Shown piece by piece: positions 22,581 to 30,557 of a stretch of DNA of 64,000 bases; within the stretch, counting starts at the first letter, position 1, and every line of letters starts with the position of its first letter. The translations under genes and the position numbers were made by a program. Origin of the DNA: Escherichia coli O157:H7 (GTDB lineage: Bacteria > Pseudomonadota > Gammaproteobacteria > Enterobacterales > Enterobacteriaceae); NCBI RefSeq assembly GCF_013167455.1, contig NZ_CP038328.1; one strand, written 5' to 3'. The notes under the pieces are model-generated. The model was not told where the DNA came from. It saw nothing but the letters and a program-made list of their open reading frames with translations, and made no database searches.

Positions 22581-22591
22581 CACACGTCATT

Positions 22592-22645
22592 GATTAAGAT
22601 CACCACGCGTTACCTGGGTGGTCTTAATCTGTTTATCTCTTTTTC
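22592..22645 (+). terminator. hairpin plus T-rich tract after rihA
   Basis: 13-bp stem gattaagatcacc / ggtggtcttaatc (1 mismatch) followed by tgtttatctcttttt. Confidence 0.5.
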
Positions 22646-22663
22646 TTTCAAGATATAAATGCA

Positions 22664-24334
22664 ATGGATAATGCAGAACTCGCCATTGGTATCGATCTCG
22701 GTACTACCAATAGTTTAATTGCCGTCTGGAAAGACGGTGCCGCGCAATTAATTCCAAATAAGTTCGGTGAATATTTAACACCATCCATAATTAGCATGGA
22801 TGAAAATAATCATATTTTAGTCGGAAAACCGGCTGTATCACGGCGTACTTCGCATCCGGATAAAACGGCAGCGTTATTTAAACGTGCAATGGGCAGTAAT
22901 ACCAACTGGCGGTTAGGCAGCGACACATTTAACGCGCCAGAACTGTCCTCTTTGGTATTACGCTCATTAAAAGAAGATGCCGAAGAATTTCTGCAACGTC
23001 CGATTAAAGATGTGGTGATCTCTGTTCCGGCTTATTTCAGCGATGAACAACGCAAGCATACCCGTTTAGCAGCGGAGTTAGCCGGTTTAAATGCGGTACG
23101 CTTAATTAATGAACCCACAGCAGCTGCGATGGCGTATGGCCTGCATACCCAACAAAATACCCGTTCGCTGGTGTTTGATCTCGGTGGCGGCACGTTTGAC
23201 GTCACGGTGCTTGAGTACGCCACGCCGGTGATTGAAGTTCACGCCTCCGCTGGCGACAACTTCCTCGGTGGCGAAGATTTTACCCATATGCTGGTCGATG
23301 AGGTTTTAAAACGCGCGGATGTCGCCAGGACCACGCTTAACGAGAGTGAACTGGCAGCCTTGTATGCCTGTGTGGAAGCGGCAAAATGTAGCAATCAATC
23401 GCCAATACACATTCGCTGGCAGTACCAGGATGAAACGCGGGAATGCGAATTTTACGAGAACGAACTGGAAGATTTGTGGTTGCCGCTGCTCAATCGCTTG
23501 CGAGTGCCGATTGAACAGGCGTTGCGCGATGCGCGTCTGAAGCCGAGTCAAATCGACAGTCTGGTGCTGGTTGGCGGCGCGTCACAAATGCCGCTGGTGC
23601 AGCGAATCGCCGTGCGTCTGTTTGGCAAATTACCGTATCAAAGTTACGATCCGAGCACCATTGTCGCGCTGGGCGCAGCAATCCAGGCAGCCTGCCGCTT
23701 ACGCAGTGAAGATATTGAAGAAGTGATCCTCACTGATATTTGCCCTTACTCGTTGGGCGTTGAGGTTAACCGCCAGGGCGTTTCCGGCATTTTCTCGCCG
23801 ATTATTGAACGAAACACCACTGTGCCCGTGTCGCGTGTAGAAACTTATTCAACCATGCACCCGGAACAGGATTCTATTACGGTTAACGTCTATCAGGGAG
23901 AAAACCACAAAGTTAAAAACAACATTCTGGTGGAATCCTTCGATGTGCCGTTGAAGAGAACCGGGGCTTATCAGTCGATTGATATTCGCTTTAGTTATGA
24001 TATCAACGGTTTGCTTGAAGTTGACGTGCTTCTGGAAGACGGCAGCGTTAAGTCCAGAGTGATTAACCACAGCCCGGTAACATTGAGCGCGCAGCAGATT
24101 GAAGAGAGTCGGACGCGGTTATCCGCATTGAAAATTTATCCGCGCGATATGCTCATCAACCGCACCTTTAAGGCCAAACTGGAAGAGTTGTGGGCGCGGG
24201 CGCTGGGTGACGAGCGAGAAGAGATTGGCCGGGTGATCACCGATTTTGATGCGGCGCTGCAGTCAAACGATATGGCCCGCGTCGATGAGGTCAGGCGGCA
24301 GGCGAGCGTTTATTTAGCCATTGAGATCCCATAA
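22664..24334 (+). CDS. hscC: Hsp70-family chaperone HscC (Hsc62)
   Basis: 556-aa ORF with actin-like ATPase motifs (IDLGTTNS, DLGGGTFD); AT-rich 5' region with rare codons. Confidence 0.95.
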   Translation: MDNAELAIGIDLGTTNSLIAVWKDGAAQLIPNKFGEYLTPSIISMDENNHILVGKPAVSRRTSHPDKTAALFKRAMGSNTNWRLGSDTFNAPELSSLVLRSLKEDAEEFLQRPIKDVVISVPAYFSDEQRKHTRLAAELAGLNAVRLINEPTAAAMAYGLHTQQNTRSLVFDLGGGTFDVTVLEYATPVIEVHASAGDNFLGGEDFTHMLVDEVLKRADVARTTLNESELAALYACVEAAKCSNQSPIHIRWQYQDETRECEFYENELEDLWLPLLNRLRVPIEQALRDARLKPSQIDSLVLVGGASQMPLVQRIAVRLFGKLPYQSYDPSTIVALGAAIQAACRLRSEDIEEVILTDICPYSLGVEVNRQGVSGIFSPIIERNTTVPVSRVETYSTMHPEQDSITVNVYQGENHKVKNNILVESFDVPLKRTGAYQSIDIRFSYDINGLLEVDVLLEDGSVKSRVINHSPVTLSAQQIEESRTRLSALKIYPRDMLINRTFKAKLEELWARALGDEREEIGRVITDFDAALQSNDMARVDEVRRQASVYLAIEIP

Positions 24335-24342
24335 TCACGGCT

Positions 24343-27214: not shown

Positions 27215-28642
27215 TCACCCGAACAGATGGAGTATTTTCCCTATCAAACCAGCAAAGATAAAAATATAGAAAATAATTTTAATGATGCCCAGACAGCCTG
27301 GCCCACCATCGTCAACGGGCATTGGCTGCGGTTGCGGCTCCGGTTCAACAGTTTGCTTCTCGGTAAAATTCGCCGCCTGAATTAATAATCGACGAATAAT
27401 TAATGCTTCCAGTGGACAACGATTTTCTGCATCAAGACGGCTTACGATCGGCATTAATGATTCTTCTGTAGGTTGGCTGGCCTGCACTAATTGTTTGGCA
27501 ACTAGATATAATGGCCATAAGGTATGTTCTGTATCACGCGTGAGTGAGATCCGCGGCTTACATCCTTTGTGCAAAACCATCTCGACCAGTGAACGCCCCA
27601 GAGCAGAGAGTTTTTCATCGCTGAGTATTTCGTATAAATGAAAACGCGTACGGGCGCTGTCGCCGGGGACATAAAGTAGCGGTTTTCCCTGGTCGTTAAC
27701 CAGTTCACGAGCTTCAATCATCATCACCACTAATGGGTAATAATCGACTCGATGCTGACGGCACCATTGCAACATTAAAGCATCCGCCTGAGTGGAGGGA
27801 TACTCGTGCCAGTAGTCACAAAGTTCTGCCAGCAGGCTTTCGCCTTCTCCACAATAGACGCGTTGCGCGTATTCATAATAACGCGCATCTTCATTATCAG
27901 GTTCAGCTTCCCGCCACGACCGGGCGTAATCCAGGAGTTCGGGGATTCCCAGGCGACCTGCACTATACCAGCGGAGTAAATTTCTGTGCAGTTTTGCATC
28001 ATCGGGGATAATCACTGCGCGATGTTGCGCTAAATACAATGTCAGCCATTCTGGATGCGATGACCAAATCCGGGCGAACATTTGGTAAAAATCGATGGTG
28101 TCATTTTGCACGGCAACGGGCAGATGCAGAATGATCTGGAAGTTAAAAACATTTCCCTTCGCAATGGCATATAAAAAGGATTCCAGTTCTTCTTCGTCTA
28201 TTTCCCCGACGTTTTCCTCCTGCAACCACCGCAATCTTTCTGCTAATAACACCACGCACTCGAAGGATAAATGGGCAGTGTTCATGGCTATTGTGCACAG
28301 CGACCAGCGTAATTCATCAATCTCATTCATCGAGCAATAATTTAATTGCTGAATGAATCGCTGCCAGGCGGAGGGCAGAAAACGTTCACTATCAGAGGCA
28401 AGTAACGCACGAAAGGCGAGCAGAATTTCATGTTCTGCTACCTCATATTCTTCTGGTTGCCAAACAGATTTAGCAGGCGACTGCGCAATCCGGAGCGCTT
28501 CCTCATACGCCTGACGAAGTTGTTTAAAACCCTGCGGATCGGTTTCTGGATGAAAGGACGGTAACAGCGCCAGATAAGCGCGGCGGATAATATCGACATC
28601 AGTCGTTTCCTCTATGTTGAGGATCTTCCAGCAATTTTTCAT
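27215..28642 (-). CDS. djlB: J-domain co-chaperone DjlB (YbeS), tail-anchored
   Basis: 475-aa ORF with N-terminal J-like domain, highly similar to djlC, and a C-terminal hydrophobic helix. Confidence 0.9.
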
Positions 28643-29346
28643 AGGTCGCTCATATCCTTAAGCGTTTCCGGGCATGTGGGGTAGTCAGCCAGTGGTTGCC
28701 AGGGTAAGGTCGCGTAATATGCATCGTCACTGGCAAATAATTGATAAAACATATCATTGCCGGAATCGTCGTATTCTTTACGCGCTAAGAATTCACGTAA
28801 TAAAGGCAGATTATCATCTTCGGGAGACTGCCAATATTGCCGACCAAAGGTATAACCGGCAAAGTATTGCCGCCAGTTACTATAATAACGTAGAGCCCGT
28901 AGATGAATACGCGACTGGATCCATAGACTTTCTTCTTCACTCAACCAGTTATTAAGTACGCCCATTCGACTTAAAAAACCCATCCGGACATAATCCCATG
29001 CTTTAATTCCTCCCTCACCACAGCATTCGGCTGTGCTGGCGACAAATTGCGCATAAGCCTGACCTTGCTCATTTAATTCAGCAAGATAGTCACGCCATTC
29101 ACATGGAGAATAACGAAACCAGCGGTGATAAAACCCTGCCAACCGCGCGGCATGACCGTTATCGATCATTCGGTGAATTGTGCGCAGCAGGTCATCACGG
29201 TCATCAATTCCCCAGGAGGAAGAAAGGTCAAAAAAGCGTGTACCTAAATACATTTTGGGTGATGAATGCGAAGGTAAACAGCATTCATTGCGTATTTCCA
29301 TCGGAGTGGAAAGTGCAAACAATATTTTTTGCGACTCCATGTCCAT
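28639..29346 (-). CDS. ybeR: DUF1266-like protein
   Basis: 235-aa ORF; its stop overlaps the djlB start (ATGA); paralog of ybeU. Confidence 0.9.
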
Positions 29347-29510
29347 ATGATTTATCCTTAAATATTCATTGAATGAATATTAGCCGCATTGCGACGCTCG
29401 TTTATTTATACTTTTCTGACGCGACATAATACGCATAAAATAAGGCTTGCGCAAAAAATGAAACACATAAAAATTCAATATATTTTATCTACAATCATAA
29501 GGAAATGATA

Positions 29511-30488
29511 ATGATTTTCACGTCAAGTTGCTGCGATAATTTATCAATAGATGAGATTATCGAACGTGCTGAAAAAGGCGATTGCGAGGCTCAATATATT
29601 GTTGGGTTTTATTATAATCGCGATAGCGCAATTGACTCTCCGGACGACGAAAAGGCCTTTTACTAGCTGAAGCTGGCCGCTGAGCAAGGTCATTGTGAAG
29701 CACAGTATTCCTTAGGGCAAAAGTATACCGAGGATAAAAGCCGTCATAAAGATAATGAGCAAGCCATCTTCTGGCTGAAAAAAGCTGCCCTACAAGGCCA
29801 TACTTTCGCTTCCAACGCCCTTGGCTGGATACTGGATCGTGGAGAAGACCCCAACTATAAAGAAGCGGTTGCCTGGTATCAGATAGCCGCGGAGAGCGGA
29901 ATGTCTTATGCGCAAAATAATCTTGGGTGGATGTACAGAAATGGCAACGGAGCCGCACAAGACTATACGCTGGCATTTTTCTGGTACAAACAAGCTGCAT
30001 TACAAGGCCATAGTGACGCGCAAAACAATCTGGCCGATCTTTATGAAGACGGAAAAGGCGTTGCTCAAAACGAGACACTCGCCGCATTCTGGTATTTGAA
30101 AAGCGCACAGCAGGGTAATCGGCATGCTCAGTTTCAAATTGCATGGGATTATAACGCTGGCGAAGGGGTGGACCAGGACTATAAGCAAGCGATGTACTGG
30201 TATCTGAAGGCTGCCGCTCAGGGGAGCGTCGGCGCTTACGTCAACATCGGTTATATGTATAAACACGGACAAGGCGTTGAGAAAGATTATCAGGCTGCCT
30301 TTGAATGGTTTACGAAAGCCGCTGAATGCAATGACGCCACTGCCTGGTATAACCTGGCCATTATGTATCACTACGGAGAAGGAAGACCTGTCGATCTCCG
30401 ACAGGCTCTCGACCTGTATCGTAAAGTTCAGTCATCCGGAACCAGAGATGTCAGTCAGGAAATTCGTGAGACTGAAGATTTACTGTAG
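29511..30488 (+). pseudogene. ybeQ: Sel1-repeat protein YbeQ interrupted by an in-frame TAG at codon 52
   Basis: ATG at 29511 opens a frame reading ...DDEKAFY*LKLAAEQG...; TAG at 29664-29666 sits where a Sel1 repeat expects Trp (TGG). The frame then runs 274 codons to the TAG stop at 30486-30488 (track ORF 29901..30488 is its 3' part). Confidence 0.7.
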
Positions 30489-30557
30489 AGATAAAAACAA
30501 GGGCCGGGGAATTTCATTCGGCCCATATTCTCTTTATTGCTGTGCGAAATCAGACTA

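Follow-up and report, generated by a model that had tools for sequence, protein, structure and literature searches.

Does a run of AT-rich, codon-atypical DNA in a bacterial chromosome record the recent arrival of foreign genes, or can such a composition be found in DNA that has long been in place? This question is raised by positions 22,581 to 30,557 of a 64,000-nucleotide stretch (the window) of contig NZ_CP038328.1 from Escherichia coli O157:H7 (assembly GCF_013167455.1), which a preliminary description, made from the sequence alone, had read as a horizontally acquired island between the core genes rihA and ybeL. The segment is the already known cluster around HscC, a specialized Hsp70 chaperone, with seven genes in the order hscC-djlC-ybeU-ybeT-djlB-ybeR-ybeQ (22664-30488) between the end of rihA (22580) and ybeL (30558-31040, minus strand); gene names follow the annotated chromosome of O157:H7 strain 146N4 (NZ_CP076237.1, 3941877-4005876), in which only 2 of the 64,000 bases of the window are different. 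Pfam matches identify HSP70 in HscC, DUF1266 in YbeU and YbeR, and Sel1 repeats in YbeT and YbeQ, together with weak DnaJ matches in the J-proteins DjlB and DjlC. Apart from hscC, the genes form two diverged tandem modules, ybeU-djlC and ybeR-djlB, each accompanied by a Sel1 gene (ybeT or ybeQ). We argue that the cluster is not a recent island but, in all likelihood, an old insertion of an HscC cassette that has been inherited vertically, silenced, and relaxed, and that is now decaying in E. coli.

Composition of the segment

Computation bears out that the segment departs from its surroundings. Its G+C content (GC) is 0.468, compared to 0.512 in the rest of the window, and only 3% of the same-length windows are lower, all of them at ∼42 to 50 kb, around lipB to pagP. 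The seven cluster genes were set against the 51 other annotated genes of the window, which served as the reference for typical composition. In this comparison, GC is 0.468 versus 0.520, GC at third codon positions (GC3) is 0.458 versus 0.564, and the window-referenced codon adaptation index (CAI) is 0.61 versus 0.70; AUA makes up 0.21 of the isoleucine codons versus 0.05, and UUA 0.27 of the leucine codons versus 0.11, so that these two codons are 2.5 to 4 times commoner in the cluster (Mann-Whitney p of 5e-5 to 1e-3 for the composition and codon contrasts). The impression, gained by eye, that hscC to ybeQ is more AT-rich than leuS (GC of 0.531) or miaB (0.540) and atypical in its codons is thus confirmed by GC, GC3, and CAI, with p values of ∼1e-4. 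Gene by gene, GC is 0.501 for hscC, 0.474 for djlC, 0.479 for ybeU, 0.427 for ybeT, 0.472 for djlB, 0.453 for ybeR, and 0.471 for ybeQ. The least atypical of these is hscC (GC3 of 0.535), and of the two rare codons that were said to be frequent in it, UUA indeed is (17 of 59 leucine codons), whereas AUA is ordinary (2 of 37 isoleucine codons).

Three sharp AT troughs, with GC of 0.33 to 0.42, fall exactly on the three promoter regions of the segment, namely, rihA-hscC (22450-23050), ybeU/ybeT (26350-26800), and ybeR/ybeQ (29200-29650). Native genes of the window can be equally AT-rich or codon-poor, as seen for ybeF, lipB, crcB, cspE, and pagP. The cluster is also exceeded in AT-richness by three stretches elsewhere in the window (GC of 0.39 to 0.42), namely, lipB-ybeF (44000-45500), cspE-pagP-dcuC upstream (48000-50500), and the dpiB-citC intergenic region (53500-54500).

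Conservation of the site and divergence of the genes

An exact 8-mer HscC scan of genome contigs yielded mainly Lachnospiraceae and missed Salmonella and Citrobacter; its silence was not counted as absence, and synteny in other enterics was recovered through protein look-ups. E. albertii, E. whittamii, and two further Escherichia species carry the same cluster at this site. It is also found there in Salmonella enterica, without ybeT (in one Salmonella contig ybeU has no gene call, yet its reading frame is open), in Citrobacter enshiensis, with two modules and without rihA and ybeT, and in one further Enterobacterales genome, with a single module and without rihA. An Enterobacter ludwigii-type contig and Kosakonia lack the cluster and have ybeL directly beside gltL; Citrobacter amalonaticus, with the gene order ybeL, rihA, gltL, lacks it as well (one contig examined for each). 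Comparison with other enterics, which had been named as a check on the island reading, therefore gives a divided answer: the site is shared with Salmonella and the other Escherichia, and the absences in Enterobacter, Kosakonia, and C. amalonaticus mean that synteny is not universal. Two local additions were seen along the way. Salmonella has an extra ORF (open reading frame) of 412 amino acids between rihA and hscC (8687-9925 of the contig), which has no Pfam or NCBIfam match and does not occur in E. coli. In Escherichia sp. MOD1-EC7003, the interval between ybeQ and ybeL (18028-20366) holds a third DjlB-like J-protein gene (HPE motif, ∼30% identity, interrupted by a stop) and a 321-amino-acid ORF with an N-terminal hydrophobic, signal-like segment.

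The same comparison removes rihA from the core flanks, where the preliminary description had placed it. This gene is missing from the gltL-ybeL interval of C. enshiensis, the further Enterobacterales genome, the Enterobacter-type contig, and Kosakonia, and is therefore itself variable across genera. In E. coli, the GC3 of rihA (21645-22580) is 0.506, below that of the neighboring glt genes, and rihA may itself be an accessory insertion.

Within Escherichia, the divergence of the cluster has kept pace with that of its flanks: measured against E. whittamii and Escherichia sp. E1V33, the synonymous substitution rate (dS) is similar for the two, at 0.25 to 0.97 in the cluster and 0.10 to 0.58 in the flanks. 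The ratio of nonsynonymous to synonymous rates (dN/dS) is 0.05 to 0.14 for the adaptor genes that accompany hscC, 0.03 for hscC, and 0.005 to 0.04 for the flanks, so that the adaptor genes are under purifying but relaxed selection. Between E. coli and Salmonella, amino acid identity amounts to 85 to 97% for the flanks, 83% for HscC, and 46 to 65% for the adaptors. Because genes in equivalent positions of E. coli, Salmonella, and Citrobacter are mutual best matches, with Salmonella DjlB as an outlier, the duplication of the module predates the splits between these genera.

Variability within E. coli

Among E. coli strains, the cluster behaves as an accessory segment in a conserved backbone, as had been proposed; it varies from strain to strain and leaves a recognizable empty site. 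In a set of 5,426 complete E. coli genomes, the segment was matched in 4,448, of which 3,697 cover at least 80% of it, and was absent in 18%; about 750 genomes (∼14%) have only partial matches. In 986 of the 5,426, rihA and ybeL lie within ∼1.7 kb of each other. These 986 include a Nissle-type strain with a clean empty site of 44 bp as well as genomes with IS1-associated deletions. Sampled partial cases cover 65% of the segment; ybeR is gone entirely, as are most of djlB and the 5′ part of ybeQ, which amounts to a 2.8-kb internal deletion. Recombination between the two modules was considered as the source of this deletion and rejected, because one of its ends falls in djlB, on the minus strand, and the other in ybeQ, on the plus strand, so that the two are not in homologous positions. 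The K-12 locus is 97.7% identical at the nucleotide level over 7,977 nucleotides, and its seven genes, likewise flanked by rihA and ybeL, agree with those of the segment in identity and order.

Thirteen of the 986 genomes carry something else at this point: an unrelated, very AT-rich module of 1.26 kb with a gene for a DUF6985 protein and two hypothetical ORFs of small size, as in E. coli 88-3493 (1701-2960 of the examined locus). Its junctions next to rihA and ybeL are shared. Since the DUF6985 module thus has the junction sequences of the hscC cluster, the site between rihA and ybeL is one that swaps its cargo.

A three-gene cassette at unrelated loci

The DjlB family is small, with 122 representative clusters at E of ≤1e-10 among 1.84 billion proteins. 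Its named members come from Escherichia, Salmonella, Rahnella, Brenneria, Dickeya, Serratia, Budvicia, Yersinia entomophaga and Yersinia nurmii, Gilliamella, and Pseudomonas; the J-protein relatives on megaplasmids of Erwinia, Pantoea, and Duffyella are only 32% identical. Four of these taxa, Dickeya, Pseudomonas, Gilliamella, and Yersinia, share one arrangement: the J-protein gene is overlapped by a DUF1266 gene and faces a convergent gene for an HscC-type Hsp70 that is 57 to 61% identical to E. coli HscC. The J-proteins examined outside the Enterobacteriaceae have ∼890 amino acids, and in several a DUF805 membrane domain is present or annotated; membrane anchoring in the cassette would be by either a tail anchor or DUF805. 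We propose as a feature of HscC-type systems that the DUF1266 gene lies directly upstream of the J-protein gene and overlaps it, with hscC convergent. All modules that were inspected show this: two apiece in E. coli, Salmonella, and C. enshiensis, and a single one in the further Enterobacterales genome, Dickeya, Pseudomonas, Gilliamella, and Yersinia. As the neighborhood differs in each taxon, the unit that moved is the DUF1266/J-protein/HscC cassette, and its presence at unrelated loci argues that it spread horizontally at some point. Horizontal acquisition is thus supported for the history of the cassette but not for a recent arrival in E. coli.

In Pseudomonas, Gilliamella, and Yersinia, the cassette has housekeeping neighbors. 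That of Dickeya fangzhongdai (13244-18676) adjoins a type VI secretion system (T6SS) set of hcp-vgrG-PAAR and a phospholipase-like effector, as well as ankyrin-repeat genes, an arrangement not seen in the other taxa examined. In the taxa examined, the cassette matches its host in GC, with 0.32 to 0.38 in Gilliamella, 0.62 to 0.63 in Pseudomonas, and 0.50 to 0.52 in Yersinia. The GC3 deficit relative to the flanks is ∼0.06 in Dickeya, 0.06 to 0.08 in Salmonella and C. enshiensis, 0.13 in the further Enterobacterales genome, and 0.11 in E. coli, and the GC of the Salmonella cluster is near that of its flanks. Because cassette GC tracks the hosts and the Salmonella cluster is close to its flanks, the AT excess in E. 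coli more likely stems from silencing, low expression, and relaxed selection than from the signature of a donor.

A more distant pairing exists in Lachnospiraceae, where an HscC-like Hsp70 (43 to 44% identical) is paired with a 1,228-amino-acid fusion of an N-terminal J-like domain and many TPR repeats, between the housekeeping genes def and fmt. In the example from YSB2008 (6301-11698), the Hsp70 gene directly follows the fusion gene, and similar loci occur in others. The resemblance to the HscC cluster lies in an Hsp70 gene beside that of a J-protein, whose J-domain is 45 to 56% identical to those of DjlB and DjlC, and in the TPR, given the TPR-like model of DjlB. In contrast to the cluster, the fusion has NPE instead of HPE and no tail anchor, and the pair comes without a DUF1266 gene. 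Our literature search found no paper that discusses DUF1266 together with HscC, and the conserved DUF1266 partner is what is modestly new here relative to the known system.

Gene organization and boundaries

The first gene, hscC (22664-24334, plus strand), is intact in the O157:H7 strain and encodes 556 amino acids (Pfam HSP70, 1.6e-116). HscC is distinct from DnaK and HscA, as it scores below both NCBIfam equivalog cut-offs (379 bits against the HscA model, with a cut-off of 709), and it is 99% identical to proteins bearing the HscC name. No NCBIfam cut-off was reached by any cluster protein, and no NCBIfam model exists for DjlB, DjlC, or DUF1266. Convergent to hscC lie djlC (ybeV; 24394-25845, minus strand), for a tail-anchored co-chaperone with an HPE J-domain, and ybeU (25842-26549, minus strand; DUF1266, Pfam 3e-45), whose stop codon overlaps the djlC start in ATGA. 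A divergent promoter region (26550-26650), very AT-rich with GC of 0.33 to 0.35 in 300-nucleotide windows, separates ybeU from ybeT (26651-27205, plus strand), for a Sel1-repeat protein of 184 amino acids with an N-terminal hydrophobic signal or anchor (Pfam Sel1, 1e-30); by analogy with K-12, this region is likely a nucleation site for H-NS. The second module consists of djlB (ybeS; 27215-28642, minus strand), intact in the O157:H7 strain and coding for an HPE J-domain, a helical TPR-like body, and a tail anchor, and ybeR (28639-29346, minus strand; DUF1266, Pfam 1.5e-47), again with a stop/start overlap in ATGA. Across another divergent promoter region (29347-29510; very AT-rich, GC of 0.34, with promoter-like sites at 29482-29521) follows ybeQ (29511-30488, plus strand), for a Sel1-repeat protein of 325 amino acids without a signal peptide (Pfam Sel1, 2e-64 for the K-12 allele). 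A scan of the region for promoters and terminators gave counts no higher than in shuffled sequence.

Two of the seven genes are broken. Codon 151 of djlC (25393-25395) is TAA in the O157:H7 strain and GAA in K-12, codon 52 of ybeQ (29664-29666) is TAG versus TGG, and RefSeq flags both genes as pseudogenes with an "internal stop"; what is intact is hscC, ybeT, and the djlB-ybeR module only. The two modules can be traced as a direct DNA repeat with a spacing of 2,797 nucleotides and 70 to 74% nucleotide identity in the best-conserved parts, and the paralogs share 49% (J-proteins), 60% (DUF1266), and ∼36% (Sel1) of their amino acids. In both DjlB and DjlC, HPE replaces HPD at residue 31, and there is a single C-terminal hydrophobic segment. 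The AlphaFold2 model of DjlB (mean predicted local distance difference test score, pLDDT, of 84) has a J-domain, a helical body that weakly resembles a TPR scaffold, and a terminal helix. The YbeU model is all-alpha (pLDDT of 85), and its comparison gave no informative structural match; a sequence search of the PDB found no solved relative of YbeU and only weak J-domain matches for DjlB.

Of the two hairpins that had been taken as boundaries, one stands at an end of the variable segment. At the left edge, directly 3′ of the rihA stop, stands a stem-loop with a T-rich tail (22592-22650, plus strand), whose hairpin (22592-22629; −17.9 kcal/mol, z of −4.5) and following T-rich run resemble a rihA terminator; genomes with the DUF6985 module have a related hairpin in the same position. 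The other hairpin that had been taken as a boundary (24343-24372; −29.6 kcal/mol, z of −5.4) contains an exact match to the core of repetitive extragenic palindromic (REP) elements, GCCGGATGCGGCGT, and is internal to the cluster, between the convergent genes hscC and djlC. Both structures are real, but they bracket hscC alone, and the true right edge, as placed by comparing its junction with those of the empty site and the DUF6985 module, is a GC-rich, bidirectional terminator-like hairpin between the convergent genes ybeQ and ybeL (30501-30524). The first two hairpins do not speak for acquisition, on which ordinary gene-end structures such as these are uninformative. Another REP-like core, ACCGGATGCGGCAT, with two mismatches, lies at 17959-17972, just downstream of lnt; in this window, such elements are found where genes ordinarily end.

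Signs of mobility were sought in several ways. A tRNA scan of 18000-34000 and an Rfam scan of the cluster region returned nothing, no flanking direct repeats were found at the cluster edges, and Pfam and NCBIfam revealed no integrase, transposase, or other mobility gene among the seven ORFs; insertion sequence (IS) elements at the locus are confined to some other strains. Searches of PLSDB and INPHARED yielded no genuine plasmid and no genuine phage with E. coli-type genes. The E. coli "plasmid" records with djlB are of 0.1 to 4.9 Mb, several of them of 0.7 to 4.9 Mb, and look like mislabeled chromosome sequence, and two unannotated "phage" records with djlB/djlC-like sequence (OR851168, 2.6 kb, and OR845923, 1.5 kb) are probably host DNA. 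A seven-tRNA array (Met, Leu, Gln, Gln, Met, Gln, Gln) annotated by RefSeq between asnB and ubiF (10121-10826) is 12 kb away and not associated with the cluster.

Origin of the cluster

How, then, did the segment come by its composition? If the E. coli lineage had recently gained foreign AT-rich DNA at the point between rihA and ybeL, and if this DNA had kept the composition of its donor, the low GC and GC3, the rare codons, and the sharp AT troughs would follow, as would the presence or absence of the segment among strains and the different AT-rich module that occupies the site in 13 genomes. Such a history is largely refuted by synteny and dS: the same site is occupied in the other Escherichia, in Salmonella, in C. 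enshiensis, and in the further Enterobacterales genome, at a dS similar to that of the flanks. There is also no tRNA, integrase, direct repeat, or true plasmid or phage carriage, cassette GC follows the host in every taxon examined, and the hairpins cited in its favor are gene-end structures. We therefore hold a recent island to be very improbable and do not regard the segment as a recent or classical acquired island. The opposite possibility, that these are native core genes whose AT-richness reflects nothing but very low expression, with no horizontal history, can draw on the similar composition of poorly expressed genes of the window (ybeF with GC of 0.447, lipB with 0.475, and crcB with CAI of 0.59), on vertical inheritance within Escherichia, and on protein levels below detection (PMC8215388). 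It is unlikely all the same, given that Enterobacter, Kosakonia, and C. amalonaticus have this backbone without the cluster, that Dickeya, Yersinia, Gilliamella, and Pseudomonas carry the cassette in unrelated places, and that the DjlB family is tiny and patchy; the data already lean toward many independent gains and differing insertion sites.

The contrast between a conserved motor (83% for HscC) and hypervariable adaptors (46 to 65%) in the comparison of E. coli with Salmonella also invites a reading of the cluster as a diversifying module of conflict or defense, in which HscC would act with fast-evolving adaptors that recognize invaders, whether phages or T6SS effectors. Presence or absence among strains, the accumulation of modules (the third J-protein of MOD1-EC7003), the hcp-vgrG-PAAR neighbors of the Dickeya cassette, and the fact that ybeT was among the top matches in a phage screen by transposon-directed insertion site sequencing (10.1101/2025.12.01.691526) would fit this. 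In the same study, however, a ybeT knockout behaved like the wild type with phage. The dN/dS of 0.05 to 0.14 is not above 1, Pfam and NCBIfam find no nuclease, protease, or toxin domain in the cluster, and the cassette has housekeeping neighbors in Pseudomonas, Gilliamella, and Yersinia. PADLOC gave only marginal, repeat-driven PtuA matches for the Sel1 proteins (E of 1e-4 to 2e-3) and no match for HscC, DjlB, DjlC, or DUF1266, and our literature search found no link of HscC or DUF1266 to phage defense or conflict systems. A defense role seems to us a remote prospect.

An old insertion, inherited vertically and decaying in E. coli, is thus the explanation that we favor and consider likely. A cassette of DUF1266 gene, J-protein gene, and convergent hscC would have spread horizontally among Gammaproteobacteria and inserted into the ybeL|gltL backbone ahead of the divergence of Escherichia, Salmonella, and some Citrobacter; at this site, the adaptor pair would have been duplicated and the Sel1 genes gained, followed by vertical inheritance. 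The J-proteins, held in the inner membrane by a C-terminal anchor, would recruit HscC and trigger its ATPase, as reported for DjlC and presumed for DjlB, and together with DUF1266 proteins and Sel1/TPR-like scaffolds might offer HscC a narrow range of clients close to the membrane; for DjlB, DUF1266, and the Sel1 proteins, these roles are suggested by gene linkage and fold. In E. coli, AT-richness would result from near-silence (H-NS-bound promoters and undetected proteins) combined with relaxed purifying selection, and the dispensable cluster would be in the course of being lost, as whole-cluster absence, the 2.8-kb deletion, the IS1 deletions, and the nonsense codons in djlC and ybeQ suggest. 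A bolder version of this history, which we find possible though somewhat doubtful, makes DUF1266 an obligatory, hitherto unrecognized third subunit of HscC-type machines and the cassette a horizontally mobile unit whose fast-evolving adaptors select lineage-specific membrane clients or invaders, with the E. coli cluster as a duplicated, Sel1-augmented, decaying version.

Several points weigh against an old, silenced insertion. The adaptors of E. coli and Salmonella are 2 to 3 times more diverged than the within-Escherichia dN/dS predicts, and replacement by foreign alleles through recombination in the flanks is conceivable. H-NS binding and low expression are known from K-12 and strain 042 and are extended to O157:H7 by analogy; in the 042 hns mutant, a DUF1266 gene was derepressed 308-fold, which may be another locus (PMC7582179). 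Since the Salmonella cluster is not AT-rich, the AT excess in E. coli needs a lineage-specific cause. Moreover, "typical" composition was here defined by 51 genes of the 64-kb window.

Relation to known systems

The HscC-DjlB-DjlC system of K-12 was reportedly described by Kluck et al. in 2002. It is like the O157:H7 locus in its HPE J-domains, its tail anchors, and its 556-amino-acid Hsp70, and differs from it in that djlC and ybeQ of O157:H7 are broken, at codons 151 and 52, respectively. The ATPase of HscC is stimulated by DjlC but by none of DnaJ, CbpA, and HscB, cells become more sensitive to Cd2+ when they lose hscC, or djlB together with djlC, and HscC confers resistance to UV; HscC, DjlB, and DjlC are below proteomic detection, and the patchy distribution of the system has been read as horizontal transfer (all PMC8215388). 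The HPE motif is tolerated in DjlB and DjlC (PMC10410713; PMC13254874). The HscA-HscB pair of the isc operon is likewise a dedicated Hsp70 with an exclusive J-protein and, by inference, independent of GrpE (PMC8215388), although HscB is a soluble protein with HPD that delivers IscU, whereas DjlB and DjlC carry tail anchors, have HPE, and are coupled by gene order to DUF1266.

With the tRNA-linked islands of O157:H7, the cluster shares lower GC, strain variability, and, by analogy with K-12, presumably the silencing of its promoters by H-NS, and it lacks their tRNA target, integrase, direct repeats, and virulence cargo and is syntenic across genera. The locus of enterocyte effacement at selC is such a tRNA-linked island of E. 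coli O157:H7. In K-12, ybeT and ybeU-djlC are listed among the targets of H-NS, overexpression of SlyA induces them, and no overlap with predicted genomic islands is tabulated for either (PMC5797941). The same list of SlyA-induced, H-NS-bound operons includes the cryptic yehDCBA, elfADCG, and casABC (PMC5797941), from which the HscC cluster differs in that its cargo is a chaperone machine instead of fimbriae or CRISPR.

With its genes annotated, the HscC-DjlC partnership known since 2002, and control by H-NS published, the locus is an already known system. It provides a clean case of atypical composition without recent transfer, in DNA that has been at its site since before the split of Escherichia and Salmonella. 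Because O157:H7 lacks a functional copy of one J-protein (DjlC) and of one Sel1 protein (YbeQ), results obtained with HscC in K-12 may not carry over to this strain. Finally, the strict linkage of DUF1266 and J-protein genes across distant hosts offers a concrete, testable lead on the clients and function of HscC.

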